Source of the DNA: an uncultured Bacteroidales bacterium | GTDB taxonomy: Bacteria; Bacteroidota; Bacteroidia; Bacteroidales; UBA10428 | Assembly: GCA_963822145.1 (NCBI GenBank) | Contig: CAWGGG010000004.1 | Location: 1,186,832 to 1,250,831 of the forward strand | DNA: 64,000 nt | Direction: 5' to 3' | In this document: piece by piece, positions 8,290-64,000 of the stretch | How positions within the stretch are numbered: position 1 is the first letter of the stretch | Layout: every line of letters begins with the position of its first letter | The notes under the pieces: model-generated | Told to the model about the DNA's origin: nothing | What the model saw: only the letters and a program-made list of their open reading frames with translations | Databases searched by the model: none | Position numbers and translations under genes: made by a program

Positions 8290-8301
8290 CCTTTGACTGT
8301 T

Positions 8302-9537
8302 ATGAAGACCCTTTTGTTATTCTCCAGGATTTTTACCGGACTGGTTTTTGTTTTCAGTGGATTTGTTAAGGCCATTGATCCCATGGGGTTTGCCATCAAA
8401 TTCGAAGAATATTTCATGGCCTTTCACCTCGATTTTCTGGTTTTCACAGCTATACCGCTGGCAATTTTCATCAGTGCTGCCGAGTTCATGATCGGGCTTA
8501 ACCTGCTGGCCGGGATACGTCTGAGAATCACAGCAGTGCTTCTCATGATCTTCATGTCTTTTTTTACGGTTCTTACCTTCATTCTGGCACTTACTAATCC
8601 CGTAAGCGATTGCGGCTGTTTTGGTGACGCCATCAAGCTTTCCAATTGGCAAACCTTTTACAAGAATATGATCTTGCTGATCCCTACCCTGTTCATTTTT
8701 ATATACAGGAAGAAAACTGGCCGGTTTGCTTCACTCTCATGCGAATGGACCCTGGCCGGAATGAATTTCCTTTTAGCTGCCGGGATTTCGCTATTCTGTA
8801 TCAGATACCAACCCTTGCTTGATTTCAGACCCTATCGGACGGGATCCTCCATTCCTGAAAAAATGGCAACTCCGGAAGGTGCCCCGGCCGATATTTATGA
8901 AACCGTTTTGGTTTATCAGAAAAATGGCGTGCTGCAGGAGTTTTCCGAAAGCAACTTCCCCTGGCAGGACACCACGTGGAAATGGGTGGAAACCCGCCAG
9001 ACCCTTATCAAGAGAGGTTATGAACCACCAGTACATGATTTTTCCATCACCACGGAGGAAGGACTTGACATCACAGAGAACATCCTGCAGGACAGTGGTT
9101 ATACCTTTCTGATTATTGCACCGTTTCTTGAGAAGTCTTCATCCAAAGGCATGGAGCATATGAATAAAATCGCATTGAAAGCCCTTGAAATGGGTTTTTC
9201 GGTGTATTGCCTGACTGCTTCTCCCAGCAACCAGATCATTACATTCAAAGAGAACTTCCAACCCGTCTTTCAGTTGTGCACATCTGATGAAACAACCTTA
9301 AAGACGATCATTCGTGCAAACCCCGGACTGCTTGTGCTGCGGGAGGGTACTATTCTGGGAAAATGGAACTATGCGGATGCACCCGATCCGGGTGGATTCA
9401 AGGCAAACATGTTGTCTTACCTATTAAGCCGACATACCCGTTCTGAGGAATCTTCCACTGTTGTTATCCTGGCCCTGGCTGTTGTTCTTTTCTATACAAC
9501 CGTGGTTGTTTTTAAAAACCTTCAACAAAAGAAGTGA
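8302..9537 (+). CDS. MauE/DoxX-family membrane protein with a soluble thioredoxin-like C-terminal half
   Basis: N-terminal half has 4-5 TM helices and a DCGCFGD motif typical of MauE/DoxX proteins. The C-terminal ~200 aa is soluble, followed by a final TM. Start taken at the ATG at 8302 (track start 8293 is TTG). Confidence 0.6.
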   Translation: MKTLLLFSRIFTGLVFVFSGFVKAIDPMGFAIKFEEYFMAFHLDFLVFTAIPLAIFISAAEFMIGLNLLAGIRLRITAVLLMIFMSFFTVLTFILALTNPVSDCGCFGDAIKLSNWQTFYKNMILLIPTLFIFIYRKKTGRFASLSCEWTLAGMNFLLAAGISLFCIRYQPLLDFRPYRTGSSIPEKMATPEGAPADIYETVLVYQKNGVLQEFSESNFPWQDTTWKWVETRQTLIKRGYEPPVHDFSITTEEGLDITENILQDSGYTFLIIAPFLEKSSSKGMEHMNKIALKALEMGFSVYCLTASPSNQIITFKENFQPVFQLCTSDETTLKTIIRANPGLLVLREGTILGKWNYADAPDPGGFKANMLSYLLSRHTRSEESSTVVILALAVVLFYTTVVVFKNLQQKK

Positions 9538-10210
9538 CCTTTTTCAAATCATCCCGGGATTTAAAATCAATCTTATTCTTCTTCAGGTAATCCTCTATTT
9601 CGGATTTATGATCGGGAAACAGCTTAAGAAGGTTATTCTTCTTATACAGTACAAATCCGTCACGGGTATTCCCGATATAATAATCGGCAATTCGCGTAAA
9701 TATATAATCCTCCTGCAGGATCAGATTATAATTGGTTCTTCCGCCTTGATCATAAATTCCGCTATAGGACTGTACAGCCCCGGTTGATGTGCGGGTACCG
9801 TATGCTCCTTCTTTTGTCTTATCCGAAAGCTTCACGTACTGCTTAATGGTCATTATGGCAGGATCGTGACCGCCAAGGACCTCATGGAAACCATCATCAT
9901 AAAAGAAAGTATCCTGCATGATCTGTACGTAACGAATATCCTTTACATTAGAGATTGACAGCGTATCCTTGGCCTGGATAAAATGCATTTCGCCATGTAG
10001 AATACTGTAATTCAATTTGGTAACAGTATAATTGTCGTTATTGAACATTACTTTCCCCTGTATAAATTGAGGATAGCGGTACCGTTCATTGAAAGGAAAG
10101 TAATCGATAATCCGGGTTCCGGCTTTAACGGTAATGGTGGTACGCTCCTGGCCTGTCAAGGACGAAACTATCAGGAAAAGCGAACCAAACAGCAAGACTG
10201 TATTTTTCAT
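9512..10210 (-). CDS. Hypothetical secreted protein
   Basis: 232-aa ORF with a signal-like N-terminus MKNTVLLFGSLFLIVSSLTGQ. No family recognised. Its 3' end overlaps the convergent 8302..9537 gene by 26 nt. Confidence 0.55.
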   Translation of the reverse strand: MKNTVLLFGSLFLIVSSLTGQERTTITVKAGTRIIDYFPFNERYRYPQFIQGKVMFNNDNYTVTKLNYSILHGEMHFIQAKDTLSISNVKDIRYVQIMQDTFFYDDGFHEVLGGHDPAIMTIKQYVKLSDKTKEGAYGTRTSTGAVQSYSGIYDQGGRTNYNLILQEDYIFTRIADYYIGNTRDGFVLYKKNNLLKLFPDHKSEIEDYLKKNKIDFKSRDDLKKVTSFVEGF

Positions 10211-10377
10211 GGCGGTGTGTAAAATTAAATGAAAGCTATAAAAGTAATAAATCCCGTCATACCATGTTTGTTCTTTTGTTATAAAGTTTTGGCATGAAGC
10301 AAAATAAAAGGAGGCTGTAACCCTAAAACGGTCATAACCTCCTGCTATTCTCAGTTCATTATTCTTTTTGTCCTTCC

Positions 10378-12003
10378 TTATGCCTGTCCTGCCGTGATAA
10401 GGTCTTTGGTTTTAAGCTTTGCCGGCATAAAGATTCCCAGGGCACCCTTTACGCCAACACTCATGACAATGTTGAACAGGAATGCTAGAAAAGCCACCAG
10501 GAGCAATCCCCCGCAGATACCTGCAAGGATCATATATATCCTGTATTCACCATTGACATATAGTGAGCGCCTCAACATACCCTGCAATCCCGCCATGCCC
10601 ATAAAGGCACCCATGCCGATACCGCCCAGCAAATGACACCAGAAGTGAATATTGGCAAGCTTCTGGCTATAGAGCCGTGCACCATTGGTGAGAATCGGGA
10701 GAAGCAGGTATATGGCTGAATATAATGTCATAGTAAGGCCTACCAGGACAGCGACATGTACATGCGGACCAATAATCCACTGTGTATTGTGCAGGATCCT
10801 GTTGAGGCCGATATCTGCCTGCAAAATACCGGCAGGAACTGCCAGTGCAAAGCCAAGGAGTCCGCCCAGCAGGAACTTTAATTCGTTGGTCATTTTCAAC
10901 GGTTTCGCACTCCAGAGGGTAACCAGGGTAATGAAGAAGGCCAAGCCCTGTGTGATAAGCTCAAAAGCAGTCACCATTTCTCCCGACAGCACTTTCAGTA
11001 GTCCGGGCTGTGCCTGGTCTGACAACAGATGATGCGACCACACCGTCCATGAAACCACAAGTTCCAAGAACAGGGCGGCTCTTGCCCAGTTTTCCATAAA
11101 CAGCTTTTTGCCGGTTATCAGGGTAGCCAGCAGGTACCAGGATCCGGCCACAAAAATAAGGACCATGCCATCTGCAATAAGGTCAAGTCCCCACCAGAAC
11201 CAGTTCTTATAAAGCAAGGCATCGATGGCTGTTGATTTCAGGCTATGCCCGAAGATTTCAGCAACCATATAAACCAGGATCAGCACTCCGGTGAAGGTAA
11301 TTACGGCAGCATTCAGAAAAGTATCCACGGTACCCCTGGCAATGGCAGCAACCGGAAGCGAAACCAGATGATCTTTCTGCTGCTTTTTGAAAAGATACCG
11401 GAATCCGGTCAGGCCGAGAGCCGAGGCCAGCAATGCTCCTGCCGGCTGTTTCTCCCAGCCTTCAGGAGTATATACAATGGTCTTAAAAATGTTCAGTACA
11501 AAGAACAGGGTGCCCACCATGATCATTGCAATGCCCAGGATGAAAAAGGCACCTCCGATTGCGCTGAATTGAGAAAAATCGGCCGGTAAGGGCCAGTATA
11601 ACGTATAAAGCGGTGCATAATGTGTCAGGAAACCCGACAACCACATGACAAATGTTCCGATAGCAATGAGAAAGAAAGTCCAGTTTGCTGTCCTGATGCT
11701 CCAAAGCGGTTTTTTCATCAGAAATGGAACCAAGAAAAGAAAGGCACCGAATACAATCATATAGGTTGAACCGAAAATACCGACCAGGGGATGCGCTGTC
11801 ATAATCGCAAAAAACTGTTCTGTAGAGATCTGTGGAACAGGATCTACTTCATAGATCCGCATCAGTACCCCTTCCACAACAACAATGGCATAATATACCA
11901 GGCCCACAATAACAAACCGCAAGGCTATTTTCTGCATTGGCGTGAGGGAGTGTGCTTTAAAAACTCCTTGTTCACCATGTATTAGAGTTTGTATGAAGTT
12001 CAT
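10378..12003 (-). CDS. Heme-copper oxidoreductase superfamily catalytic subunit I homologue with an atypical active site (putative NO reductase, gNOR-like)
   Basis: 541 aa with about 12-14 TM helices. Conserved heme ligands are present (TAHPLVGIF; WSHHLL; GPHVHVAV), but helix VI reads FWWGLDLIAD where oxidases have FW(F/W)xGHPxVY. Confidence 0.8.
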   Translation of the reverse strand: MNFIQTLIHGEQGVFKAHSLTPMQKIALRFVIVGLVYYAIVVVEGVLMRIYEVDPVPQISTEQFFAIMTAHPLVGIFGSTYMIVFGAFLFLVPFLMKKPLWSIRTANWTFFLIAIGTFVMWLSGFLTHYAPLYTLYWPLPADFSQFSAIGGAFFILGIAMIMVGTLFFVLNIFKTIVYTPEGWEKQPAGALLASALGLTGFRYLFKKQQKDHLVSLPVAAIARGTVDTFLNAAVITFTGVLILVYMVAEIFGHSLKSTAIDALLYKNWFWWGLDLIADGMVLIFVAGSWYLLATLITGKKLFMENWARAALFLELVVSWTVWSHHLLSDQAQPGLLKVLSGEMVTAFELITQGLAFFITLVTLWSAKPLKMTNELKFLLGGLLGFALAVPAGILQADIGLNRILHNTQWIIGPHVHVAVLVGLTMTLYSAIYLLLPILTNGARLYSQKLANIHFWCHLLGGIGMGAFMGMAGLQGMLRRSLYVNGEYRIYMILAGICGGLLLVAFLAFLFNIVMSVGVKGALGIFMPAKLKTKDLITAGQA

Positions 12004-12051: not shown

Positions 12052-12600
12052 CTATTCTGTTACCTCCACAATGCCCTTTTCGTGCATCAGTGCACCTGCC
12101 GGACCTGAGTACTCGGTGGAACGGATATCAAAAACACCGGTTTCCCCAAATTGCCAAAGCAGATCATTCCTGTGTCCGGGTACAACCTGCATCTGGAAAA
12201 CCATGGTATTGTCCTGCCGGAACAATCCGAAACCATAGGTAAGATCATTGGACCGCACATCAAACAGGATTTTCTGATTCAATTTTACCACCAGCTTCTC
12301 ATCGGGCAGCCTGAACTGATGGTTTTCAACTGTAATATAAAATACTGTATCCGGTTGGATCTCCCTTCGGTTTAGATCCATGGGAGACCAGGGTATGGTA
12401 TTGTAGGTGAAAATATGAAGGGAAACCCCTGTCACCACCAGGAAACTCACCCAGGTATAAAAGAAAACAGGTTTGATCAGTTTGCCCTCTCCTTTGGAGG
12501 TGATGCGATAGGCAAACCAGATCATAACTGAGAGGATCGCCAGTGCATACGACGTATACACCCAGATTAGTCCTGTTAAAACATCCTTTGAATCAGCCAT
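12052..12600 (-). CDS. Subunit II-like cupredoxin protein lacking the CuA site
   Basis: 182 aa with two N-terminal TM helices and a beta-rich domain. STEYSGPAGALMH occupies the position of the CuA motif CxExCGxxHxxM. The whole protein contains no cysteine. Confidence 0.7.
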   Translation of the reverse strand: MADSKDVLTGLIWVYTSYALAILSVMIWFAYRITSKGEGKLIKPVFFYTWVSFLVVTGVSLHIFTYNTIPWSPMDLNRREIQPDTVFYITVENHQFRLPDEKLVVKLNQKILFDVRSNDLTYGFGLFRQDNTMVFQMQVVPGHRNDLLWQFGETGVFDIRSTEYSGPAGALMHEKGIVEVTE

Positions 12601-12619: not shown

Positions 12620-13039
12620 TTATGAAGAAAAATCGAAATCAGAACCATGAACCAGCTGCAGCAGTGAAGTATTTGAAAAGGCAGCAAGTATTTTATCCCG
12701 GGTATCCTCCCACAGGTAATGTAGTGTGCAACGCTCAGACAATCTGCAGTCGGTTATTCCCATTATGCAGCCTTCCAGTGTACTCAACCCTTCAGTGGCT
12801 TCAATGATTTCTGAGAGAAAGATTTTTCCAGGTGAACGGGAAAAAGCATAACCTCCCTTTTTACCCCGGATACTTATCAGGAAACCCGTATTTGTAAGCC
12901 GGGTAAGTACCCTTCTCATGTAACGATTGTGAATGGCAAGGCTATCGAAAAGATATTGTGCAGAGAATATTTTGCGGTTTTCCCCTGCCATAAAAACCAG
13001 AATTCGGATAGCGTATGTTGTAGTCTTGGAGAAAATCAT
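12620..13039 (-). CDS. Rrf2-family transcriptional regulator (NsrR/IscR-like, three-Cys cluster site)
   Basis: 139 aa. Has an N-terminal winged HTH (TTYAIRILVFMA..) and a C-x6-C-x5-C motif (EGCIMGITDCRLSERC). It is the first gene of the operon with 12052..12600 and 10378..12003. Confidence 0.85.
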   Translation of the reverse strand: MIFSKTTTYAIRILVFMAGENRKIFSAQYLFDSLAIHNRYMRRVLTRLTNTGFLISIRGKKGGYAFSRSPGKIFLSEIIEATEGLSTLEGCIMGITDCRLSERCTLHYLWEDTRDKILAAFSNTSLLQLVHGSDFDFSS

Positions 13040-13041
13040 AA

Positions 13042-13061
13042 ATAATACATTGATGTATTAT
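13042..13061. promoter_or_regulatory. Perfect inverted repeat ATAATACAT-TG-ATGTATTAT, candidate Rrf2 operator
   Basis: 9-bp perfect arms 3 nt upstream of the Rrf2 start codon, in the divergent Rrf2/GNAT intergenic region. The ATACAT/ATGTAT hexamers resemble NsrR-type half-sites. Confidence 0.4.
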
Positions 13062-24007: not shown

Positions 24008-24116
24008 AAGTTTTTCCATCAGGTGCCGGAATCATATACCGTTTAACGGTAATGATCATGAGTGATCTTGTTATGGATGGAAAAAAATAATATTTTTATT
24101 GAATAAATCCCATTCA

Positions 24117-27100
24117 ATGGTCTGCAGGATTTCCCGTCTGTATTGGATCTTTTGCTTCATGGTTCTTGTTTTCCCCGTTTCTGCCCAGGATTCCAAAGTG
24201 TTTTCAGGGGAAACCGATAAATACCCTGACGAGCTCTTTTTATTTATGCAAAAAAGCAGCAATCCTGAAAGCGAAAAGGCAGTGAATGAGTTTATAACAG
24301 CATGGACCAGGGATAGCCTTTTCAGTCCAAAGGAACGAGAAAGGGTCATTCAGTTATCATTGGATCTTCTTAAAAAGAATGCAAAGCCCTATCCTCACTT
24401 CACGCATTTTCTCAGGTGCCTTATGCTGATGAAAACTACTCGGCAGAAGCCTGAAAACTTCGTCAATTGGGAGAAAGGCCTGGAACTGCTGCTGGCCAGC
24501 CGGAAAATAACCCTGCAGTCCACTGATCGTTACCTGTCATTCACACGACAATTGTTTGACAGCAGTTCTTTATATCGCTCTATTAGTGTGGATTGGCGGA
24601 CCCGATCGCGTGATTATACAATTGTTACCGATACTGCCATTCGGATCATCCTGAAAAAGACTGACCTGGTTTGCTATGTCAGGAACGACAGCATTATGGT
24701 GACTGAAACCAGTGGTGAATTTAATCCGGTGACTTCCATTTGGAAAGGTACCGGGGGAACCGTAACCTGGGAGAGGGCAGGATTTAAGAAGTCGGAGGTT
24801 TACGCACAGCTAAGCACTTATGAAATCAATATGACCCGTTCGGAATATACCGCGAAAGATGCAGTTTTTGTCAACAAGGTTTATTTCAATGCCCCTTTAA
24901 AAGGCACCCTGACGGATCGGGTAAAACTGGTTAAAACACCTGAAGATGCAGACTATCCCTTGTTTGATTCCTATCAGAAAGACTTTAAAATCAAAAAGTT
25001 ATACAAAGATATTGATTTTGAAGGAGGTTTGTCGATGCAGGGCTCAAAACTGGTTGGAACAGGAAACCGCGAAAAACCGGCTTATGTTTTCATATACCGG
25101 AAAGATACCCTGGTACTGGTTGCCAGATCGGAATACTTTGCATTCCGTTCCGACCGGATCAACGCTCCGATTGCCGCCATTATCATCAAGCTCAGAAAAG
25201 ACTCAATCTTTCATCCGGGTTTGGCTTTCAGTTACCTGGTGCCTTCACGGGAGCTTTCCCTGAACCGCAACAACAATTTCACATCGGAAAGTCCGTATTA
25301 TGATTCTTATCATAACATCGATATGACATTCGAACAACTGGTATGGAAAATGAATGAGCCGGTTATGAGGTTTACCGCCACCCTGGGCAGTACCATCGGG
25401 AAAGCCAATTTTGAGTCTGTCAGCTTTTTCAATAACGAGCAATACCTGAACATGCAGCTTATGGATGAAGTGCATCCACTTGTTTCCATCCGGAGTTTTG
25501 CCAGGTACATGGGGGTGGAGGAGTTCCTTGCAGATGATTATGCACGCTATCTGAAAAAATCCATTTCCCAGGTAAAGCAATTGCTCATGCGCATGGCGGC
25601 CCAGGGTTTTCTCTATTATGACAGCGAATCTGGCATGGCTGCCATTCGTCCAAGGTTGCATGATTACCTGGCTGCCAGCGTTGCTAAAATCGATTATGAT
25701 GTTATCAGTTTCCCCTCGCGAACTACTGCACCAGTTGAAAATGCGATGTTTGACCTCCGGAACTATGATCTTACCATTAACGGCATTCCCAGGATATTCG
25801 TCAGCGATTCACAGAATGTGGCTATCTATCCCGACAATGACCGGATCATCATGAAGAAAAACAGGCATTTTCAGTTTGACGGACAGGTTCAGGCCGGCCT
25901 GTTTACTTTTACAGGGAAGAACTTCTTTTTTAATTATGATACCTTTAAGATTGATCTTCAGAAGATCGACTCCCTGCGCATCCGTTATTTAACCGGTCAG
26001 GTGGACGATTATGGTTTTGCAGTTGCCGATAGAGCGCAGAATCTCATTCAGGACATTAAGGGAGAATTGTATATCGATAAATCAGACAATAAATCCGGTA
26101 GGAAATCCTACTCTGAATACCCAATATTCAGGTCTACAGAAAATGGTTTTGTATATTATGATGATAAAAAAATCCAGGATGGGGTGTATGACCGTGATCG
26201 GTTCTATTTTGAGATTTATCCCTTTGAAATGGACAGCCTCGATAATTTCAACCGTCAATCCATGCAGTTTGAGGGTGAACTAACATCTGCCGGTATCTTC
26301 CCTGTGATCCAGGAAACCCTTCGGCTACAAGGTGATAAATCTCTGGGGTTCAAGTATATGACTCCTGATTCCGGACTTTCCTTATATAAAGGAAAGGGAA
26401 TGTTTTTTCAGGAAATCTCTTTAAGCAATCAGGGGCTGCAGGGTTCTGGAACCATTAATTACCTCACTTCTTCCACCATTTCCGATGATATCCGGTTTTA
26501 TCCGGATTCATTAAATGCCGTATCGCGTGATTTTACCATCGTTCAAAAGACAACAGATACGCAATTTCCGCAGGTGCATTCTGTTAACAACAAGATCCAC
26601 TGGTTGCCCTATCTGGATGAATTCTATGCCTACAGGATTGATTCAACGTTCCGTATGTTCAACAATACCTCAGTACTGGCAGGCAATCTGAAATTGCAGC
26701 CTTCCGGTCTGGGCGGCGAGGGCAGAATGTTTCTCGAAGGTGCAGAATTGCATTCGGAAAAGTATGCGTTCAAAGCCAACGAAATCGATGCTGACACAGC
26801 TGACTTTTTTCTTAAATCACTTCATAGCGAAGGCTTTACAGTTCTAACAGAGAACATGAAATCCCATATTGATTTCACGCAGCAAAAAGGATTGTTTACC
26901 ACCAACGAGGATTTCACGCTGGTCTCTTTTCCTGAAAACAAGTACGTGAGCTACCTTGACCATTTTGAGTGGAATATGTCCAGCAAAGAACTTGCCATGG
27001 GATCGCGCTCCTCAACACCACCTGCCACAGAGATAGCAGAAGAAGGTTTAACGGGGCCGAGATACATCAGTATTGATCCGGCCCAGGATTCCCTGAGCTT

Positions 27101-28595
27101 CATTGCCCCGCTGGCTTTCTATGATTATGACAGCAATCTGATCAAAGCTCATGAAGTAAAATACGTAGATATTGCTGATGCCCGGATATATCCCGAGAAT
27201 GAGAAACTTACAGTACAGCCGGATGCACGGTTAAGGCCCCTGTACAAGGCCAATATTCTGGTTAACAGGACCACAAGGTACTTTACCCTGATTGATGCCA
27301 CCATTTCGATCACAGGCAGGAATAAGTATACAGGATCTGCGTATTACAATTATATTGATGAACTGGAGCAGCCACAATTGATTTATTTCAGCGCTCTCGG
27401 GGTCGATGACAGTTTACAGACAATCGGTTCAGGGGAGGTATCAGAAGCTGATGAGTTTACCCTGAGTCCCAATTACAGATATCGGGGAAAGTTTTATCTG
27501 GAAGCCTCTAAAAGGCTCCTGACTTTCGATGGCGGCACATTGATTGAACACAACTGTGAAAAGGTAGTTCCACGATGGGTGTATTTCAGGTCGGAAATTG
27601 ATCCAAAAAATATCATGATCCCCATCAGGGATGAGTTGATTGACATCAACAGAGATAAAATTTTCAACGGCTTGTTCATGTATTATGATTCTGTTCATGT
27701 CTATCCCGCTTTCCTTTCGGGTCGGAAGAATTACAGCGATAAAGCCATTGTTACATCCACCGGATATCTTTATTATGATAAACCATCGCAGCAATACCTG
27801 ATCGCCTCCAAAGAAAAACTGCTCGACAGGAATGTACCAGGGAATATCCTGGCCCTGCATCGTGAAAACTGCGAGTTATACGGGGAAGGAAAGATTGAAC
27901 CAGGCGCCAAGCTTGGCCAGATGAAAATAACCACGGTGGGAAATGTACTTCACAAAACAGAAGCTAACGAAACGGAGATGAATGTTTTGTTTGGATTGGA
28001 CTTTTTCATTGCTGATAACATCATCAATGTCATGGCAAGTGAAATCGACAGCATGCCGAACCTCCCTGCAGTTGATCTGAACAGGCCCCTGTACACGAAG
28101 GGCATTGTTGATCTTATTGGGAAAAGCCGTTACGATGCCATGAGATCTGAATTGAGTCTTTTTGGAACCTTAAAGGAGATGCCCCAGGAACTCAAGCATA
28201 CTATAATGTTTAACGAGCTAAAACTGCGGTGGAACAATGAATCAAATTCCTGGATGTCAGTGGGTAAAATTGGAATTGCCAGTATAAACAATATGCCCGT
28301 AAACAAAAGGGTGGATGGTCTGCTCGAGCTTCAGATAAAACGAAGTGGTGATATCCTTGATTTCTATTTGCAGCTCGACCGGCGTACCTGGTATTACTTC
28401 GGATACACCAGGGGGGTTATGCAAATACATTCATCCAATAATGAATTTCTTGAAAGGATGAAAAAGCTCAAACCCAATGAGCGACGGTTGAATGTAACAA
28501 CCGGGGAATCCTATATTTATATGGTATCCACCGATGTTAAAAAGAACACCTTCCTGAGAAGATACCGGGAGGTATATGAGAACAGCAGTGAGTAA
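24117..28595 (+). CDS. Very large (about 1490 aa) secreted hypothetical protein
   Basis: Uninterrupted ORF with a signal peptide (MVCRISRLYWIFCFMVLVFPVSAQ). Composition is beta-rich. No recognisable catalytic motif or internal repeat. The track start at 24099 is TTG; the ATG at 24117 is used. Confidence 0.7.
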   Translation: MVCRISRLYWIFCFMVLVFPVSAQDSKVFSGETDKYPDELFLFMQKSSNPESEKAVNEFITAWTRDSLFSPKERERVIQLSLDLLKKNAKPYPHFTHFLRCLMLMKTTRQKPENFVNWEKGLELLLASRKITLQSTDRYLSFTRQLFDSSSLYRSISVDWRTRSRDYTIVTDTAIRIILKKTDLVCYVRNDSIMVTETSGEFNPVTSIWKGTGGTVTWERAGFKKSEVYAQLSTYEINMTRSEYTAKDAVFVNKVYFNAPLKGTLTDRVKLVKTPEDADYPLFDSYQKDFKIKKLYKDIDFEGGLSMQGSKLVGTGNREKPAYVFIYRKDTLVLVARSEYFAFRSDRINAPIAAIIIKLRKDSIFHPGLAFSYLVPSRELSLNRNNNFTSESPYYDSYHNIDMTFEQLVWKMNEPVMRFTATLGSTIGKANFESVSFFNNEQYLNMQLMDEVHPLVSIRSFARYMGVEEFLADDYARYLKKSISQVKQLLMRMAAQGFLYYDSESGMAAIRPRLHDYLAASVAKIDYDVISFPSRTTAPVENAMFDLRNYDLTINGIPRIFVSDSQNVAIYPDNDRIIMKKNRHFQFDGQVQAGLFTFTGKNFFFNYDTFKIDLQKIDSLRIRYLTGQVDDYGFAVADRAQNLIQDIKGELYIDKSDNKSGRKSYSEYPIFRSTENGFVYYDDKKIQDGVYDRDRFYFEIYPFEMDSLDNFNRQSMQFEGELTSAGIFPVIQETLRLQGDKSLGFKYMTPDSGLSLYKGKGMFFQEISLSNQGLQGSGTINYLTSSTISDDIRFYPDSLNAVSRDFTIVQKTTDTQFPQVHSVNNKIHWLPYLDEFYAYRIDSTFRMFNNTSVLAGNLKLQPSGLGGEGRMFLEGAELHSEKYAFKANEIDADTADFFLKSLHSEGFTVLTENMKSHIDFTQQKGLFTTNEDFTLVSFPENKYVSYLDHFEWNMSSKELAMGSRSSTPPATEIAEEGLTGPRYISIDPAQDSLSFIAPLAFYDYDSNLIKAHEVKYVDIADARIYPENEKLTVQPDARLRPLYKANILVNRTTRYFTLIDATISITGRNKYTGSAYYNYIDELEQPQLIYFSALGVDDSLQTIGSGEVSEADEFTLSPNYRYRGKFYLEASKRLLTFDGGTLIEHNCEKVVPRWVYFRSEIDPKNIMIPIRDELIDINRDKIFNGLFMYYDSVHVYPAFLSGRKNYSDKAIVTSTGYLYYDKPSQQYLIASKEKLLDRNVPGNILALHRENCELYGEGKIEPGAKLGQMKITTVGNVLHKTEANETEMNVLFGLDFFIADNIINVMASEIDSMPNLPAVDLNRPLYTKGIVDLIGKSRYDAMRSELSLFGTLKEMPQELKHTIMFNELKLRWNNESNSWMSVGKIGIASINNMPVNKRVDGLLELQIKRSGDILDFYLQLDRRTWYYFGYTRGVMQIHSSNNEFLERMKKLKPNERRLNVTTGESYIYMVSTDVKKNTFLRRYREVYENSSE

Positions 28596-54267: not shown

Positions 54268-54341
54268 GGTCATGTAGTTCAGCTGGTTAGAATGCCGGCC
54301 TGTCACGCCGGAGGTCGCGGGTTCGAGTCCCGTCGTGACCG
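54268..54341 (+). tRNA. tRNA-Asp (anticodon GTC)
   Basis: A 74-nt cloverleaf folded by hand: acceptor GGTCATG/CGTGACC, anticodon stem CCGGC/GCCGG, loop CTGTCAC, T-arm GCGGG-TTCGAGT-CCCGT. CCA is not encoded. Confidence 0.9.
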
Positions 54342-54358
54342 CAGCTAAAGCGAGTTAA

Positions 54359-54395
54359 CCCCTGTTAGTCAATAGATTAACGGGGGTTTTTCTTT
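54359..54395 (+). terminator. Stem-loop plus T-run after tRNA-Asp
   Basis: CCCCTGTTA / TAACGGGG stem (one bulge) with a 10-nt loop, then GTTTTTCTTT. Confidence 0.55.
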
Positions 54396-54397
54396 GC

Positions 54398-54421
54398 ATG
54401 GTGTCGGATATGGTGTCAGAT
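54398..54421 (+). repeat. 12-bp tandem direct repeat ATGGTGTCGGAT ATGGTGTCAGAT
   Basis: Two adjacent copies (11/12 identical) 57 nt downstream of the tRNA end, at the presumed island junction. Confidence 0.85.
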
Positions 54422-54655
54422 TTCCGGAACCATATTTTTTATATTAATTAAATTTGTACTCGGTTTCATTGCATTTATCTATTGAATTGTTCAGGTTTTC
54501 CTAAACAGCAATTCATCAGAAAAAGTTAGGGGAAATGCAATCTGGGCCTTATCAGTGTGCTTTGATAAGGGACAAGAAGCAAGAAAACCAATGGGATAGC
54601 GGATCACCCTAAGACCTGCATGTTGATAGTTACTAACGTTATATGTAATATGATT

Positions 54656-54931
54656 ATGGAAAATGTGTCGTTACAGGAGTTGAGGTCCTTGATTGCTGAG
54701 GTTGTATCCCAGCAGCTCATAAAATTTAATCCTCAAGCCCAGCCAAAGACGGAATATTTAACGCGAATCGAGGTCGCGAGAGCTTTAAGAATAAGCCTTC
54801 CAACTTTGAACGAGCTTACTAAAACCGGGAAAATACCAGCTTATAGGATTGGGGGCCGTGTTTTATATAAGTCCAATGAGGTAAGGGAATCCCTATCAAA
54901 AATTAAGGTATTGATGAGGAGGGCCGAATAA
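54656..54931 (+). CDS. Helix-turn-helix DNA-binding protein (HTH_17 / excisionase-like)
   Basis: YLTRIEVARALRISLPTLNELTKTGKIPAYRIGGRVLYKSNEV is the MerR-superfamily excisionase-type HTH common in Bacteroidota mobile elements. Start chosen at the ATG at 54656. Confidence 0.7.
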   Translation: MENVSLQELRSLIAEVVSQQLIKFNPQAQPKTEYLTRIEVARALRISLPTLNELTKTGKIPAYRIGGRVLYKSNEVRESLSKIKVLMRRAE

Positions 54932-55095
54932 TGAACCCGATTCAGGAATTAAAGCACCTGTATTTGCAGGAGAATTGCCGGCGATTCACTTCCCTGCATG
55001 AATATGCTAAGGGAGCACATCTTATTTGTAGGACATTTCGGACCTTTTATGATTGGTATAAAAAAGAAAGGAGATTGCTATGGATCAAATATTAA
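54931..55095 (+). CDS. Small ORF (54 aa), translationally coupled between the HTH gene and the primase gene
   Basis: Its ATG overlaps the HTH stop (TAATG) and its 3' end overlaps the primase start by 16 nt. MNPIQELKHLYLQENCRRFTSLHEYAKGAHLICRTFRTFYDWYKKERRLLWIKY. Below the ORF-track cutoff, hand translated. Confidence 0.3.
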   Translation: MNPIQELKHLYLQENCRRFTSLHEYAKGAHLICRTFRTFYDWYKKERRLLWIKY

Positions 55096-57245
55096 CTAGT
55101 TCTGAAATTTCATCAGCAGCGCAAAGGACAGATCTGAAATTATTTTCCGTTTACAAAGCACCCATAAAGTCAACGATCCCCTACAAAGAAGTCTCCATTC
55201 ATGATGTTTATCAGGTAATAAGGTCGACGAAATATAAGGATATCACTGAAGAACTGAGGAAACTGACGGGGGATAAACTCAAAGAACAGGAATTCAAGCA
55301 AAGCAAATTGGATTATGTAACATTCAGCGGAACTTTCAATACTCGGGCTGAAGCGGGACTTAAAAACCATTCAGGTTTAATTTGTATTGATCTTGATGAT
55401 TTATCGGATATTCAATACTTGCAGCAAAGAATTTTAAAGGAATATACTCCAGCATTAATTTTTGTCAGTCCACGCGGCAAAGGCTTGAAAATCGTGTACT
55501 GCATAGATATTGAGGCAGCCACACATCTTGAGTATTTTAACGCATTTTCAGCATATTTCAAACATACCCTTTACGTTGATATTGATCGAAATTGTAAAGA
55601 TGTTTCAAGGGCTTGTTATTTATGCTATGATCCTAATGTTATCTGTTCCGATAATCCGACAGTCTTGAACCGATCATTCATTGATTTATATCAAAAGCAG
55701 GAAAATACTCTCAATATTTCATTGCCCACAGATAAACCTGTTTGGCGAGACATTTATAACAAACTTAGAATATGGTTAGATAAGCAAGAGTCATTTATTG
55801 AGGGAAATCGTAATAAATACATAACAAAACTTACTTCCGCTTGTAACACTTATGGTATTCCTCAAAATGAATTAGAAGTATTACTTGAGGAATTTCAACA
55901 GGAAACCTTCACACAAAAAGAAATCAATGATACCGTAAAAAGTATTTACAATACTCATTCTGCTGAGCATGGAACAAAATCTTTTGATTTTAATATACCT
56001 TTCAATGTTGAAACATTAGCTGCTGAGGAAGAAAAAGAAACACTTCCGGAAACACCATTATTTCCCATAGAAGGGTTTCCTCAATTCATACAAGACCTTA
56101 TTACTGAGTGCTCAAGAGTATATGGTACACATCCTGATTTTTGGGCTGGGGCTATATTATCTGCAACAGCCATAGGAATTGGCAATACTTGTCGTCTGGT
56201 CACTAAATATGACAATAGTTCAATATTGTGGCTAACATTAGTCGCTCCATCCGGTATCGGAAAGACAGAACCGCTTAGGTTTGCCTTCAAACCTTTTCAC
56301 TACTTAGATTCAATGGAGGCAGAAAGGTATGAGCAGGCAGTAAAGGAATATGAGATTAATAAGAAAAAACCCAGAGAAGAACAGCAAGATTTACAAACTC
56401 CCGAATGCAAACTGCATATCCTGTCTGATGCAACACCCGAAGCTGTTATTCAGGCAAATAAGATCAACCCCCGGGGCATTTTGATTGAACGGGACGAATT
56501 ACATGGATGGTTGCTTGACTTTGGCCGTTACAATAAATCGGGAGAGGTCCAAAATTGGATAAGTGCTTGGTCGCAGACACCGATGACAGTCAACAGGAAA
56601 GGACAATCCCCCCTGAAGATTGAAAACCCATTTATAAACGTGATAGGCGGAATCCAACCCGAAATATTACCTGAACTAGCTAAGGAACACCGGGAAGTTA
56701 ATGGATTCTTACAGCGTTTTTGCTTTATATACCCTGATAGAACAATTAGGCCATACTACAGTAATATTAAACTTCCCGACAATTTAATATTAGCTTATCA
56801 GCAATATTGCAATAATCTTTTATCAATAACTGACCAAGATCAGATTGGACTTTCTAAAGACGCAGAAGATGTTTACACGGTCTTCATTAATCACAATACT
56901 GATACAATCAATAAGGAGAAAGTGGAATATTTACGAGCAGTTTACTCAAAGCTGGACATATTTTGTTTACGGTTTGCGCTAATTATACATATAATGAAGC
57001 TTGTTTGCACTGGCGTTGATGAGAACATGATCACACTTGAAACCATGCAGGCAGCAATCAGAATGACAGATTATTTTCGGATCACTGGAATAAAAGTTTA
57101 CCATAAGTTAAGGATCTCAAATAAATATGATACCAAAGAACTGATTAAACTTTTATCTGGTTTGGGCAATTCCCAGAATCAGATTAGCGAGGTATTGAAA
57201 GTTAGTCAACCGTACGTATGCAAGATCCTAAAAACAAAAATATAA
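55080..57245 (+). CDS. Primase-helicase-like replication protein (BT4734/VirE-N-type primase-polymerase domain, DUF3987 P-loop domain, C-terminal HTH)
   Basis: AEP-like motifs GLICIDLDD, FVSPRGKGLKIVY and CKDVSRACYLCYD. Walker A LVAPSGIGKTE. C-terminal HTH NSQNQISEVLKVSQPYVCKIL. AAAGGAG lies upstream of the ATG. Confidence 0.8.
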   Translation: MDQILTSSEISSAAQRTDLKLFSVYKAPIKSTIPYKEVSIHDVYQVIRSTKYKDITEELRKLTGDKLKEQEFKQSKLDYVTFSGTFNTRAEAGLKNHSGLICIDLDDLSDIQYLQQRILKEYTPALIFVSPRGKGLKIVYCIDIEAATHLEYFNAFSAYFKHTLYVDIDRNCKDVSRACYLCYDPNVICSDNPTVLNRSFIDLYQKQENTLNISLPTDKPVWRDIYNKLRIWLDKQESFIEGNRNKYITKLTSACNTYGIPQNELEVLLEEFQQETFTQKEINDTVKSIYNTHSAEHGTKSFDFNIPFNVETLAAEEEKETLPETPLFPIEGFPQFIQDLITECSRVYGTHPDFWAGAILSATAIGIGNTCRLVTKYDNSSILWLTLVAPSGIGKTEPLRFAFKPFHYLDSMEAERYEQAVKEYEINKKKPREEQQDLQTPECKLHILSDATPEAVIQANKINPRGILIERDELHGWLLDFGRYNKSGEVQNWISAWSQTPMTVNRKGQSPLKIENPFINVIGGIQPEILPELAKEHREVNGFLQRFCFIYPDRTIRPYYSNIKLPDNLILAYQQYCNNLLSITDQDQIGLSKDAEDVYTVFINHNTDTINKEKVEYLRAVYSKLDIFCLRFALIIHIMKLVCTGVDENMITLETMQAAIRMTDYFRITGIKVYHKLRISNKYDTKELIKLLSGLGNSQNQISEVLKVSQPYVCKILKTKI

Positions 57246-57255
57246 TTATGAATAT

Positions 57256-57421
57256 GGTTATAAGTTATATAATTCTAAAAGCAATACCAGTAAGGGGATT
57301 GACATATAACCAGCATATAACTTTAAAAAAAGTGATATGAAATTCTTGGTTATACCTAATTTATAAGCAAAACGCCTGTAAATAAAGGGATTCATCGGAT
57401 TATAACTTATAGCCTTATAAC
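57256..57421. repeat. Cluster of TTATAAC / GTTATAA heptamer motifs in both orientations (iteron-like)
   Basis: Copies at 57256-63, 57264-70 and 57348-55 (GGTTATA orientation), and at 57304-10, 57315-21, 57399-406 and 57415-21 ((A/T)TATAAC orientation). Two of them are spaced 11 bp apart. Confidence 0.6.
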
Positions 57422-57440
57422 CCATAGAAAATATAATACA

Positions 57441-57734
57441 ATGGCATTACCCAAATTTGAACCGATAGTATGGAAAAGGGAAGTTAAAAAAAACGACTCA
57501 GCACCAATAATATTTAGAGAGGATTACAAACCATTAAAAGTTATAATCCGCTGCCCTTCAGCGGATTTATCAGACAGTATAAAAAATTACTGGCACTCTT
57601 ACCCTGAAGCTAGGTTATATTTTAAGAACACCCCCGCTGAACGCCTATTGTTTTACAATGAATACGTAAAATTGAATATGGACAAACAATGCAGTTATAC
57701 TGATTTCGAGCTATTTACTTTTTCAATTAACTAA
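57441..57734 (+). CDS. Hypothetical protein (97 aa)
   Basis: ORF only; no recognisable motif. Lies downstream of the iteron-like cluster. Confidence 0.4.
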   Translation: MALPKFEPIVWKREVKKNDSAPIIFREDYKPLKVIIRCPSADLSDSIKNYWHSYPEARLYFKNTPAERLLFYNEYVKLNMDKQCSYTDFELFTFSIN

Positions 57735-58230
57735 AGTAATACCATGAACAATTCAGAAATAATGAGAGTATGCCGGGTACACGCCATTAAAGCTTATAAA
57801 CGGCCGATGAACAAAGAACGGAAAGTATTAGTAAGTACCATGTTTAATCACTTAAAAAGGGATAATCGGATTGAAGGGGGTGGAATGGTATGATGTGAAC
57901 ACCTTGGAGGCGACTATATTGCAATACTGGAAATGAAGGGTATGCATATTGAATATAATTATGCAGTAAAACAACTATGAAACTATTTACAATTAAATCT
58001 GATCTTTGATCGCACAAACCAGCTTTTTAAAGAGGCTGGGTTGCCACAAACGGCCACACCGGGGAAGCACAGGCTGTTATTGGTTGAAAAGGGTAACATA
58101 AAAGAAAGTGGGGATTACAACAAAGGGTATTAACTCCGGTATATTGATTCCTGGTTCTAAAATGACAACCTCCTTTTAAACAAGAAAAATCAGGTGGAAA
58201 TTGAGACCATCCAAGTTGTGGCTACTTCAA

Positions 58231-59595
58231 TTAATCCTTCATACAACGTACATAGCGTCCATTCCTATTATGTCCACCCGGGGCATATCTGACCACAGTA
58301 GTACCATTGTAATTAATGTAGCGATCAATTGAATGATTTGCGTCAGTCAAGGTAGAACTCCAGTATTGAGCTCGGTCATCAATATCTCCAGCAAATGGTC
58401 CAGTATAATCACGTAATATTCCCGGGATAGCTGTAAAACCAGTTTCGTTGGTTGCCCCAGTATTGGGGTTACGCCAATGCACATTACCAACTTCTTTGAG
58501 TTTTCCGCCTGCAACACCCTCACCACCCAGGTAATCGGTTAATTTTGTCCAATCAGGATCGGTGGGAACGTGCCAACCTGAAGGGCACAATTTTCCGGTT
58601 TGAACTGTGTACGCGTTGTATATTGCTCCATAAGTTGCTCTGAAGCCTTCATTATTATTAGGCCAGCAATAAGCAGGCGCGGACAAACTACCCCATGTTG
58701 TATTATCAGTGACCAATGGAATATCTATGCCGTCATTATATTTTGTGGTTTTCAAGTTCTCTGCCATCCAAATCTGACTCCCAATTTTCACAGTTATATA
58801 GACATTTCCATCAGTATCAGTTAATCCACTTATGGCTTCTAAGGCTTCTATTCTTGATATTAGTGCGTTAACATATGCCTTATCTACTGCATCAGTTATT
58901 CCATAACCTGCAACTGTTGTGGGTTTTCCGGTTAAAGAGGTCCAGGTGCCATTAAAAAGAGCTGGTTTGTCAGTAAGATCTGCGTATGAACCACTAAATA
59001 ATGATGGTTTATTTAATAAATCATTATAACTTCCAGTAGATGCTATGGCTGCAAATGAGGGCTTACCCAATATATCAACCCAATGTACTGCGAACGAGGC
59101 TATATCATTGGTAAAATCGCTCAGTTTTGTTGGTTTCCCACTCAAATCGCTATAAAGTCCGCTTGTTGCTACAATCGCAAATGATGGTTGATTTGTAAGT
59201 TTATTATAATCCACTGTTTCTACTGTTTTGGCATGGAGGGCATAAGGAACACTCAGTATTTGAGAAATACCCAATTCAGTACCATCTGCACTAATTTTTA
59301 AAAAGTACGGTCCATCAGCCCAGTCAATGGCTGAAAATCCAGAAGTATTTTTAGAGCCTATCTCAAGATTAACCAACCCAAATTCATTTGTTGTTATATT
59401 ATAGTTTTCCGAAAATACTTGTACACCTGAAGCACTGCCTTGTAATATAGAAACTTCAATGCTTAGATTAGCATTTGCTTTGACGTTGCCTGAGGCATCC
59501 CGTAATACTGCCTGGTATTTAAAACTTGATGGGACTTGTCCGGAAAAGTTCGCAGTAATTATTACAGCTACTAATAGAGAATAAAGCTTTTTCAT
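58231..59595 (-). CDS. Secreted fibre-like protein: N-terminal beta domain, tail-fibre-type (Y/F)xDLxxKP repeats, coiled coil, C-terminal FISUMP (Fibrobacter succinogenes major paralogous) domain
   Basis: Signal peptide. Repeats YSDLSGKPTKLSDFTND, YNDLLNKPSLF, YADLTDKPALF and WTSLTGKPTTVAGYGITDA. Heptad stretch AYVNALISRIEALEA. FISUMP motifs GSQIWMAENL, GWHVPT, GGKLKE and RCMKD. Confidence 0.75.
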   Translation of the reverse strand: MKKLYSLLVAVIITANFSGQVPSSFKYQAVLRDASGNVKANANLSIEVSILQGSASGVQVFSENYNITTNEFGLVNLEIGSKNTSGFSAIDWADGPYFLKISADGTELGISQILSVPYALHAKTVETVDYNKLTNQPSFAIVATSGLYSDLSGKPTKLSDFTNDIASFAVHWVDILGKPSFAAIASTGSYNDLLNKPSLFSGSYADLTDKPALFNGTWTSLTGKPTTVAGYGITDAVDKAYVNALISRIEALEAISGLTDTDGNVYITVKIGSQIWMAENLKTTKYNDGIDIPLVTDNTTWGSLSAPAYCWPNNNEGFRATYGAIYNAYTVQTGKLCPSGWHVPTDPDWTKLTDYLGGEGVAGGKLKEVGNVHWRNPNTGATNETGFTAIPGILRDYTGPFAGDIDDRAQYWSSTLTDANHSIDRYINYNGTTVVRYAPGGHNRNGRYVRCMKD

Positions 59596-59597
59596 TG

Positions 59598-61502
59598 TTA
59601 ATGGGTTTTAACAATTTTAAATGATTTCAGCTCTTTATTATTATAGGTTACTTTAAGAATATAACCTGCTGGAGATAAATCATAAAAAGGTATTTCTGTT
59701 TCAGTGTTTTCAATCTGCTTTTGCAACAGTAATTTTCCGTTAAGATCATAAAGCAGGTATTGCAGTCCTGATAAATTATCCAAGACAATTCTTAATTTTA
59801 CATACTCAGCAAAAGGATTGGGAAAGGCAGAAATTTCAAAATTCAATTCATGTGACTCATCTAAACTGTTTATCATGAGGTTAGTCTGCTGAAAACCTTG
59901 GGTAAGCATTATATTAGAACCTTTAAATGTTTCAATAATCGTTTCACCAAAAGTGTAACTTATAGAGCCTCCCGATTTAATACTATAGTCACCTCCTGAG
60001 GAAATAACTTCCTGTAGAATTGATAGTTGAGGTTTGACTTGTTCTGTGACGGTAATTATAAAATCTTGGTCAGTTGATATTGTTCCATCATTTACTCTCA
60101 GCTTTAAAGTATTTGTTCCAATGTTGCTATTACTTGGTATTCCACTTAACAATGCTGTTCCATTTCCATAATCAGTAAATGCAAGCCATTCCGGTTTCGT
60201 TGGTGCTGAAATTGATAAGGCGTCTCCATTAATGTCATGTGCAGTGATATTGTAGGTATATTCTTCATCCACTGCTGCAGAAGTAATAGGAGAAGTTGTG
60301 AATGCTGGAGGTTGATTTAAATCCATCAAGATATAGTTGTAACCTATATTATTCAGTTCATTGAGCTCAGTGATATTGTTGAAATAATCTAGTACTATAA
60401 AAACTTTGTTTGTATCTTGATTAGCAACTATGTTTTTATGAAGAAGAATGCTAGCATTTGCACTTAAGTTAAGTTTAGTGTGATAAATAGTCTGCTTACC
60501 GTTATTTTGTAATAAAATTGAAACTGTATCATTTACATTAGTCAAACCTATATTTTTTATGTTAAATTCAACATTAACAGAATCAACTTTGGGCTTTAAT
60601 GTTATGTTATTAATGATTAAGTCAGGCAAATTTGCATATAAATATAAGGCACGATTATTATTAGATTCTATTGACTCTAATACATTGTTTGTTATGTCTG
60701 AATATATGCCTAAAACATGTATTGGCTTAGTTATTTTAATTTTAAGTACACCTTCTGCATAACCAAGAGGTGCCATAGTATTAATAAAATAAGTTTTTAT
60801 TATTGATAAATCTTGCCATACGTCGATATAAAATGTAGTATTAATACTATAAATTGAATTATTAAGAACGGTAAAATGCATTGTTACTGAGTCACCAATA
60901 CTAAAACTTGATTCTTCAATATTTATATTGGAAATCTGAATATCTGGTAAGCCTATTAATGGAGGAGGTAAACAAAATCCAGATTCTAACGCATTAATTA
61001 AAATGTCTGGGTCGACTCTTGGGTAAATACCGCTATTTAAGTATGCATTCTTGGTTAAATAGGCAACTTTTTCCCATTGTTGAGTAATGCCATTAAGTTT
61101 ATATAATATTGGTGGATATTGTGCAAAAGAATTATATGCACTATAACTACTAAAACTACTACCATAGGATGAGAAGCTATTTCTAATGCTAGTAGATGAA
61201 TATCTACTTCCATAATTACCATAATCATTTATGATAGATTCTTGGTTATATTGATTTTGGGATGTTATACCCAGATATTGCATACTGAAATCTTGTGCAT
61301 AAATCTTGCAATCTACATAATCACAATAATTTAACTGAGATGTTGATTTTAATTCTGAGTTATCGTTTTGTTTTGCAGGGTAATCAATTAATTTCCCTAT
61401 AGTGCCGGTTTGGTGAAGCTCTTTAGTAACTTTGGTTGTATCAGCTGAATATCCTAATTGAACACTGATAAGTAATGTTAAAATTAAAGTGATGACCTTC
61501 AT
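59598..61502 (-). CDS. Secreted multidomain surface protein (S/Y/G-rich N-terminal region, 2 CARDB-like domains, cadherin-like Ig domain, T9SS C-terminal sorting domain)
   Basis: Signal peptide. LPDIQISNINIE.. and LPDLIINNITLKP.. are CARDB-like starts. PPAFTTSPITSAAVDEEYTYNITAHDINGD.. is cadherin-like. C-terminal ISAFPNPFAEYVKL...GYILKVTYNNKELKSFKIVKTH is a T9SS CTD. The stop is 2 nt from the next gene's start. Confidence 0.75.
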   Translation of the reverse strand: MKVITLILTLLISVQLGYSADTTKVTKELHQTGTIGKLIDYPAKQNDNSELKSTSQLNYCDYVDCKIYAQDFSMQYLGITSQNQYNQESIINDYGNYGSRYSSTSIRNSFSSYGSSFSSYSAYNSFAQYPPILYKLNGITQQWEKVAYLTKNAYLNSGIYPRVDPDILINALESGFCLPPPLIGLPDIQISNINIEESSFSIGDSVTMHFTVLNNSIYSINTTFYIDVWQDLSIIKTYFINTMAPLGYAEGVLKIKITKPIHVLGIYSDITNNVLESIESNNNRALYLYANLPDLIINNITLKPKVDSVNVEFNIKNIGLTNVNDTVSILLQNNGKQTIYHTKLNLSANASILLHKNIVANQDTNKVFIVLDYFNNITELNELNNIGYNYILMDLNQPPAFTTSPITSAAVDEEYTYNITAHDINGDALSISAPTKPEWLAFTDYGNGTALLSGIPSNSNIGTNTLKLRVNDGTISTDQDFIITVTEQVKPQLSILQEVISSGGDYSIKSGGSISYTFGETIIETFKGSNIMLTQGFQQTNLMINSLDESHELNFEISAFPNPFAEYVKLRIVLDNLSGLQYLLYDLNGKLLLQKQIENTETEIPFYDLSPAGYILKVTYNNKELKSFKIVKTH

Positions 61503-61704
61503 TACTTTTCTAATTAGAACTTGTGAAAAATCTTTTTATAAAGATTCTATTAAAAAAAGAAATATTCCTAAAGGCGAGGTATTGTAAATTGCAATAATGC
61601 ACGTTATTTGCAAGTCAAAAGTTATCTATAAAAATTGAGCTATGCAAACTTGTTCACCGATATTAAATAAAACAAGCATCTGATAAAACAAATAGTCTGT
61701 CAGA

Positions 61705-62271: not shown

Positions 62272-62395
62272 GACTAAAAAGTTAGTATTGGTAATATTTA
62301 GCTTTAGTTGCCAACTATTGATAGTAGGTTTTAATGGCTCCGGGTACTTTTAGAGCCCCTTATTATTCAGATAGTAAGGGGTTTTCTGTTTTATG

Positions 62396-63591: not shown

Positions 63592-63638
63592 AGCTATATA
63601 TTTTGGTCAATAGTTTTTATAAGGAATCACCATTCATC

Positions 63639-63999: not shown

Positions 64000-64000
64000 C

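Follow-up and report, generated by a model that had tools for sequence, protein, structure and literature searches.

What does the gene at positions 10378–12003 of a 64-kb stretch of DNA from an uncultured Bacteroidales bacterium (GenBank assembly GCA_963822145.1, contig CAWGGG010000004.1; the whole stretch of 64,000 nucleotides is referred to as the window) encode: a cytochrome c oxidase subunit, or a heme-copper oxidoreductase (HCO) subunit that acts on another substrate? Its homologues are named 'cytochrome c oxidase subunit 1' or 'cbb3-type cytochrome c oxidase subunit I', as a preliminary description of the locus had guessed that automatic annotation would name it. In the encoded protein, two residues that are central to oxygen reduction are replaced by aspartate. 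The reading that we favor on balance is that this gene belongs to a three-gene operon, rrf2-norH-norG, for an enzyme of the gNOR family, which would reduce nitric oxide (NO), be fed by quinol, and act as a stress module repressed by an Rrf2 protein with an iron-sulfur (Fe-S) cluster.

The gene and the codons on which the assignment of its product depends are as follows.

10378–12003, minus strand: norG-like gene for HCO subunit I (541 residues, ATG start), from the open reading frame (ORF) list and Pfam COX1.
11791–11793, minus strand: codon of His71 in FAIMTAHPLVGIF, the helix-II low-spin heme ligand, from the translation; invariant.
11182–11184, minus strand: codon of Asp274, in the place of the first CuB histidine (ba3 His233), from the HMMER alignment to ba3; conserved in 57 of 57 homologues.
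11170–11172, minus strand: codon of Asp278, in the place of the His-cross-linked tyrosine (ba3 Tyr237), from the same alignment; likewise 57 of 57.
11029–11034, minus strand: His324-His325 in WTVWSHHLLSD, the helix-VII active-site metal ligands that are kept, from the translation; in register with the ba3 HH pair and invariant.
10756–10764, minus strand: His414-Val-His416 in IIGPHVHVAVL, the helix-X ligands of the high-spin and low-spin hemes, from the translation; aligned to ba3 HFH and invariant.

The 541-residue product, NorG, matched Pfam COX1 with 184.8 bits over residues 25–496. All of the motifs quoted in the preliminary description were found and the heme histidines are invariant, which bears out its view that this is a genuine HCO subunit I. 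In a search with the single sequence, subunit I of Thermus thermophilus cytochrome ba3 scored best of the solved structures (E = 4e-8). NorG carries the helix-VI motif DALLYKNWFWWGLDLIAD, the WWGLDLIAD part of which is encoded at 11170–11196 on the minus strand, and HMMER placed helix VI without gaps on that of ba3 (FWWGLDLIAD on FWWTGHPIVY), with the downstream HH pair and HxH motif in register. Because the helix-VI alignment is ungapped, Asp274 falls on His233 and Asp278 on Tyr237, at the two positions for which the preliminary description had proposed aspartates. The position of Asp278 is also that of the FeB-ligating glutamate in cNOR.

In an alignment of 57 NorG homologues sharing 40–91% identity with the query, the residues W270-W271-G272-L273-D274 and A277-D278-G279 were invariant, as were H71, H324, H325, H414, and H416. 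The invariance of D274 and D278 spans two deep subclades, one of the Bacteroidota/Ignavibacteria type and one of the Chloroflexi/archaeal type. The Asp/Asp pair is a conserved family signature, and neither a chance substitution nor a sequencing artefact.

Two residues that might stand in for the replaced ones were also considered. His253, the upstream histidine in EIFGHSL that the preliminary description had named as the CuB ligand that would overturn its proposal, was rejected as a substitute metal ligand, as it is a histidine in 3 of the 57 homologues and lies in the helix V–VI loop of the structure model. A migrated tyrosine of the C-family type was rejected as well, since the invariant Ser318 fills that position, six residues before the HH pair.

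For the structure of NorG, a single-sequence AlphaFold2 model was unusable (pLDDT 47.7) and was replaced by a model based on the 57-sequence alignment, which had a pLDDT of 83.8, a pTM of 0.87, and 12 long transmembrane (TM) helices. Foldseek related this model to cytochrome c and quinol oxidase subunit I with a TM-score of about 0.76, and the top matches were A-family enzymes. The geometry of the metal site, as we infer it, rests on the sequence only.

Subunit II is encoded by the neighboring gene.

12052–12600, minus strand: norH-like gene for subunit II (182 residues), with two N-terminal TM helices and a cupredoxin domain without a CuA site, directly upstream of norG.

The C-terminal domain of NorH gave a weak match to NCBIfam CoxB (29 bits). 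In the alignment to engineered ba3 CuA domains, four of the five CuA ligands are replaced (His by Tyr122, Cys by Ser161, Cys by Ser165, and His by Gly169), and Met172 is the single ligand that is kept. The whole 182-residue sequence of NorH in the window contains no cysteine, in agreement with the Cys-less subunit II that had been described for the upstream gene. The residues at the four replaced positions are invariant in 78 homologues, as is the loop that takes the place of the site, RSTEYSG (78/78); selection has therefore reshaped the CuA site of NorH, which was not a plain loss.

No CxxCH (heme c) motif was found in the NorG, NorH, or Rrf2 sequences of the window. Since NorH lacks CuA and a heme c motif is absent, the electrons most likely come straight from membrane (mena)quinol. 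In the profile alignment to the bo3 quinol oxidase, the invariant Glu44 of NorG falls on Asp75 of the bo3 quinol site, and position 63 falls on His98; the window protein has Gln there, and 25 of the 57 homologues have His. A quinol donor to NorG–NorH is thus plausible and partly supported by the sequence comparison.

The gNOR (norGH) family is reportedly to be credited to Hemp and Gennis and to Sievert and colleagues, both in 2008. It has been described as the first HCO family in which an active-site histidine is replaced, by aspartate (Murali et al., 2024, PMC11214002). According to the same work, the family lacks the CuA residues in its cupredoxin subunit II and carries candidate quinol-binding residues, its NO reduction is predicted since a synthetic mimic of the site reduces NO, and its bacterial and archaeal members come mostly from sulfidic environments (PMC11214002). 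The residue at the tyrosine position of gNOR is given as 'D' in a table adapted from Hemp and Gennis (PMC8756737, Table A4), and Sulfurimonas, Sulfurovum, and Persephonella are named as carriers (PMC8756737). In Methylomirabilis, norGH has been described as a quinone-oxidising, non-electrogenic NO reductase, which is transcribed in a metagenome-assembled genome (MAG) (PMC8906906).

NorG and NorH share the features by which this family is defined: an HCO subunit I with its heme ligands, the His-to-Asp replacement, an Asp at the tyrosine position, and a cupredoxin subunit II without CuA. They are also alike in the absence of heme c and in their occurrence in Bacteria and Archaea, and part of a quinol-site-like pattern is present. 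No defining difference was found; the named carriers are Sulfurimonas, Sulfurovum, Persephonella, and Methylomirabilis, whereas those found here are Bacteroidota and Ignavibacteria. The gNOR literature that was searched makes no mention of rrf2 or of its putative operator. These comparisons support the assignment of NorG–NorH, by sequence, to the published gNOR family and not to a new kind of system, an assignment based on the defining features and on the lack of a second Asp-bearing lineage among the matches read, not on a joint tree. The gNOR-like identity put forward in the preliminary description accordingly agrees with the published definition (PMC11214002, PMC8756737).

The position of NorG among the HCO families was examined with profiles and structures. 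The NorG family profile scored 83 bits against bo3 (in two stretches), 65–67 against ba3, 45 against cbb3, and 16 against cNOR NorB (4xyd, E = 0.029). NorG clearly lies on the side of the A- and B-family oxygen reductases and at a great distance from cNOR and qNOR. A B-family origin of gNOR is given in the literature, and the locus had been described as "B-type-derived". This origin is favored by ba3 being the best single-sequence match in the PDB, but the profile favors bo3 and Foldseek favors the A family. The B-family ancestry therefore rests, more weakly, on the literature, as neither the profile nor the fold search distinguishes the A family from the B family.

Compared with ba3 of the B family, NorG is alike in that helices VI–VII align almost without gaps and in the WW motif, the HH pair, and the HxH heme ligands, whereas it differs in having Asp274 and Asp278 in place of His233 and Tyr237. 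The second subunits differ as well: that of ba3 carries CuA and a single TM helix, whereas NorH lacks CuA and has two such helices. Two TM helices in subunit II, as in NorH, are the A-family pattern. The Escherichia coli bo3 quinol oxidase, an A-family enzyme, gave the highest profile score of the solved structures (83 bits). Like NorH, its subunit II is a cupredoxin that has two TM helices and no CuA. Conversely, the bo3 enzyme has the full site of three CuB histidines and the tyrosine, and it reduces O2. The three-histidine CuB site with a His-Tyr cofactor that marks the A- and B-family O2 reductases is thus absent from NorG.

For the classical NO reductases cNOR and qNOR (NorB, NorZ), the likeness lies in the presumed conversion of 2 NO to nitrous oxide (N2O) at a heme and a non-heme metal without a tyrosine cofactor. 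They also share the carboxylate at the helix-VI His+4 position (Glu there, Asp278 in NorG; table in PMC8756737), and qNOR, too, is quinol-fed. However, these enzymes keep all three histidines, one of which is Asp in NorG, and they are very distant from it in sequence (16 versus 65–83 bits). Their FeB is held by three His and a Glu, whereas NorG has only two His and is not close to NorB. In addition, cNOR has a cytochrome c subunit, whereas the partner here is a cupredoxin.

The third gene and the site in front of it bear on regulation.

12620–13039, minus strand: gene for an Rrf2-family regulator (139 residues), the first gene of the operon; Pfam Rrf2, 89.8 bits.
13042–13061, no strand assigned: perfect palindrome ATAATACAT-tg-ATGTATTAT, a putative Rrf2 operator that starts 3 nucleotides (nt) upstream of the rrf2 start codon.

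The gap between rrf2 and norH is only 19 nt. The Rrf2 protein has the Fe-S ligand pattern C91-x6-C98-x5-C104-x2-H107. All 59 homologues have the three cysteines, and 57 of the 59 have His107. We take this Cys3His spacing to be that of E. coli IscR and not of NsrR. The ligands of IscR are Cys92, Cys98, Cys104, and His107, whereas NsrR holds a [4Fe-4S] cluster on three cysteines. No NCBIfam equivalog model scored above its cut-off against the protein: the NsrR model NF008240 reached 49 bits against a cut-off of 182, and the IscR model TIGR02010 reached 56 bits against 207.55. Judged by this below-cut-off score, the protein is not an IscR orthologue. In the PDB search IscR was the best match, and no NsrR structure was found at E ≤ 1e-3. 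The NsrR assignment is not supported, in view of the low model score, the IscR-like ligands, and IscR as the best solved relative. Thus, for the Rrf2/NsrR-like regulator of the preliminary description, the Rrf2 part stood, but the NsrR part did not, and the sequence supports the designation of an Rrf2 protein with an Fe-S site.

The palindrome lies between a promoter-like element and the rrf2 start codon, a position that would fit autorepression by an Rrf2 dimer at the putative operator. A 7-6-7 inverted repeat, ATrmTAY-N6-RTAkyAT, recurs at the same offset (−22/−23) in related loci, and its arms covary between loci, with ATGCTAC...GTAGCAT in some and ATAATAC...GTATTAT in others. The arms were complementary at six or more of the seven positions in 22 of 52 loci, compared with 3.6% of shuffles and 5 of 52 in a control region. 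The regulator resembles IscR and NsrR in the winged-helix Rrf2 fold, in the three invariant cysteines and His107 with IscR-like spacing, and in a palindromic site, here putative, at its own promoter. It differs in that it falls under the NCBIfam cut-offs, and in the sequence of the 13042–13061 palindrome, in which we recognise no consensus site of IscR or NsrR.

A Crp/Fnr-type box, TGTGA-N6-T(C/A)ACA, was observed 73–81 nt upstream of rrf2 in 11 of the 52 loci (L005, L011, L013, L014, L019, L035, L037, L040, L055, L070, and L077, the last with the perfect TGTGAAATATTTCACA), and none was found in the window. This box suggests a second regulatory layer in some lineages.

Conservation of the gene order was assessed in 80 related loci from species-representative genomes. 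The norH gene lies directly upstream of norG in 78 of the 80, and about 55 have rrf2 ahead of norH in the same orientation, whereas no other flanking gene of the window is conserved across the set. Within the same loci, identity was 76–83% for NorG, 51–69% for NorH, and mostly 35–57% for Rrf2. As the identity of NorG is high relative to that of NorH and Rrf2, it reflects strong purifying selection and not very recent transfer. The remainder of the window is ordinary Bacteroidota housekeeping and glycan-use DNA, including genes for proteins with type IX secretion system (T9SS) tails. That the module stands alone among housekeeping genes suggests that it serves to detoxify NO and does not belong to a complete denitrification pathway.

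In the mechanism that we infer for the metal, the substrate, the electron donor, and the regulatory signal, NorG would hold a low-spin heme on His71 and His416 and a high-spin heme on His414. Beside the latter, a non-heme metal would be held by His324, His325, and Asp274. Asp278 would lie one helical turn above Asp274, where O2 reductases have the cross-linked tyrosine and cNOR and qNOR have the FeB glutamate. Since there is no His-Tyr cofactor, NorG would not carry out four-electron O2 reduction. NO is the most likely substrate because the site combines a heme with a 2-His/carboxylate metal, has a carboxylate at His+4, and excludes O2 chemistry; NorG would then most likely turn 2 NO into N2O at a heme/non-heme-iron center. 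The electrons would most likely be drawn from membrane (mena)quinol, with NorH as a cupredoxin without CuA. The Rrf2 protein, with an Fe-S cluster on Cys91, Cys98, Cys104, and His107, probably represses the operon through the palindrome at its own promoter and start region, and damage of the cluster by NO would release the palindrome.

Several observations weigh against this mechanism. No biochemical or structural characterisation of any gNOR was found in the literature searched up to 2026, and NO reduction is therefore a family-wide prediction. One preprint gives gNOR a His-to-Glu change of a heme ligand; this change was not seen in the NorG clade, in which all of the heme histidines are intact. 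In the NorG model, confidence is low at residues 326–328, beside the HH pair. The quinol site is only partly kept, as Arg71 and Gln101 of bo3 have no counterpart in NorG. The regulator resembles IscR over NsrR and thus gives no specific indication of NO sensing. Neither the 64-kb window nor the immediate surroundings of the homologues examined contained nir, nos, or nrf genes. Finally, split YeeE/YedE sulfur-transporter genes and two or three rhodanese genes lie near the module in 10–13 of the 80 loci, either shortly after norG or up to about 3 kb ahead of the module (for example, L014 4199–4708, L062 5246–5848, L032 9017–9628, and L061 129–1169). These neighbors echo the published link of gNOR with sulfidic habitats and could point to a sulfur-linked role.

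The sulfur-gene neighbors and the IscR-like regulator together leave room for an alternative physiological role. NorG might belong to the gNOR family by sequence and yet act on a substrate other than NO, either another small oxidant in a quinol-linked reaction or in sulfide/sulfur stress, under general Fe-S/redox control by Rrf2. The absence of adjacent denitrification genes in the window and in the loci examined, the YeeE/YedE halves and rhodaneses after the module, the IscR-like ligands without an NsrR equivalog match, and the lack of a gNOR assay in the searched literature would all agree with such a role, as would the mostly sulfidic environments of gNORs (PMC11214002). However, a heme with a 2-His/carboxylate site is a known NO reductase architecture, a synthetic mimic of which reduces NO (PMC11214002), and the sulfur genes occur only in a minority of loci. 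In addition, cupin, DUF438-hemerythrin-PAS, and DUF1858-DUF2249 proteins neighbor the module in 6 of the 80 loci, and genes for hemerythrin and Crp-family proteins adjoin distant-clade norG copies. Hemerythrin, DUF438, and DUF1858 neighbors are typical of NO-stress regulons. We regard a substrate other than NO as unlikely.

A related proposal, which we hold only tentatively, is that NorGH of Bacteroidota and Ignavibacteria might form a self-contained stress unit with a 2-His-2-Asp center and a previously undescribed Cys3His Rrf2 sensor acting on an ATAATAC-N6-GTATTAT operator. Its substrate or its advantage (e.g., NO turnover with sulfide) could differ from those of the classical NO reductases. 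We know of no 2-His-2-Asp coordination sphere in solved heme-copper oxidoreductase structures.

Considerably less probable is a divergent but working A/B-type terminal oxidase that reduces O2. The names given to the homologues, the O2 reductases returned as the best fold and profile matches, and the heme ligands and two of three CuB histidines that are kept would be consistent with such an enzyme. Conversely, both the cross-link tyrosine and its histidine partner are invariantly Asp, Ser318 and not a tyrosine occupies the C-family helix-VII position, the CuA site is absent, and the published view is that HCOs without the tyrosine cofactor do not catalyse O2 reduction. A decaying, non-functional remnant under relaxed selection, as the loss of three canonical residue classes (one CuB histidine, the tyrosine, and the CuA ligands) might imply, is in effect refuted by the conservation data, as the frames are intact, NorG keeps 76–91% identity in at least 567 species-level genomes and in thousands of metagenomic proteins, the substituted residues are invariant, the CuA-replacement loop is kept in 78 of 78 homologues, and the operon and operator-like site are conserved.

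Among the candidates scored, 3226 proteins were related to NorG at E ≤ 1e-10, the top 120 of which were all at least 78% identical, and a genome scan gave at least 567 stretches from species-level genomes, mostly MAGs of Bacteroidales, other Bacteroidota, and Ignavibacteria. A further scan covered 1.84 billion representative sequences clustered at 50% identity, and helix VI was read in the few high-scoring matches that cover it, with about 140 fragments listed. The pair was present in the full-length matches P0121 (74% identity) and P0123 (45%), and the pair or a recognisable remnant was present in four readable fragments (P0146, P0147, P0202, and the degenerate P0215). No Asp/Asp motif was seen in the frameshift-garbled P0203, and P0158 and P0255 do not reach helix VI. 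Below these matches there is a gap in identity, with the next sequences at less than 33%; none of the 10 full-length matches that were read below 33% has Asp/Asp, as eight have His and one Arg at the first position, and one has no such motif. The P0123 branch includes Chloroflexi, Actinobacteria, Thermoprotei, and Methanomethylicia, and in a crude neighbor-joining tree the Asp/Asp sequences formed one clade with two subclades.

Among the sequences of the representative search, P0241 (462 residues) reads IWVALRFYLQ in helix VI, with Arg at the CuB-histidine position and Gln at the tyrosine position, and has HWQH in place of the HH pair, so that two of the three CuB histidines seem to be missing. 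The helix VI of P0192 reads IWWGLHSYVN (His/Asn). In the distant Chloroflexi/archaeal branch (L084–L088), subunit II is shorter (140–183 residues), and in three of these loci it is preceded by an ORF of 34–35 residues, possibly an extra small subunit.

The gNOR family is counted as a source of N2O in metagenomic surveys, though its activity is a prediction. The NorG clade is abundant, with the at least 567 species-level genomes lying mostly in Bacteroidota and Ignavibacteria, which are not usually deemed denitrifiers. The compact module of regulator, subunit II, and subunit I, with its recognisable putative operator, offers a testable handle on the N2O output, the metal, and the inducer of gNOR. 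For the window itself, the main consequence is the correction of a likely mis-annotation as cytochrome c oxidase. Added to the published picture here are the invariance of Asp/Asp in two deep subclades, the exclusion of the proposed rescue histidine, the rrf2 (Cys3His) gene with its conserved putative operator, and the frequency of the module in Bacteroidota and Ignavibacteria.

Past the end of norG, one further feature was recorded.

10303–10349, minus strand: imperfect 20-nt inverted repeat, a possible transcript end, 29–75 nt past the norG stop codon; arms 75% complementary.

A terminator scan gave no call at this repeat, and its reading as a transcript end is weak. Just downstream of the operon are genes for a 414-residue membrane protein with a MauE/DoxX domain (8293–9537, plus strand) and for a 232-residue protein with a signal peptide and no family match (9512–10210, minus strand), neither of which is conserved beside norG in the other loci. 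Elsewhere in the window, an ORF of 1498 residues (24099–28595, plus strand) stands among annotated housekeeping genes and has no Pfam match at E ≤ 1e-5. A tRNA-Asp gene at 54268–54342 is followed by a stretch of low GC content (30–38%, versus about 45% elsewhere), which encodes a DUF3987/BT4734-like/PriCT primase-type protein at 55080–57245. This part of the window (within 54268–64000) looks like a mobile element integrated at the tRNA gene.

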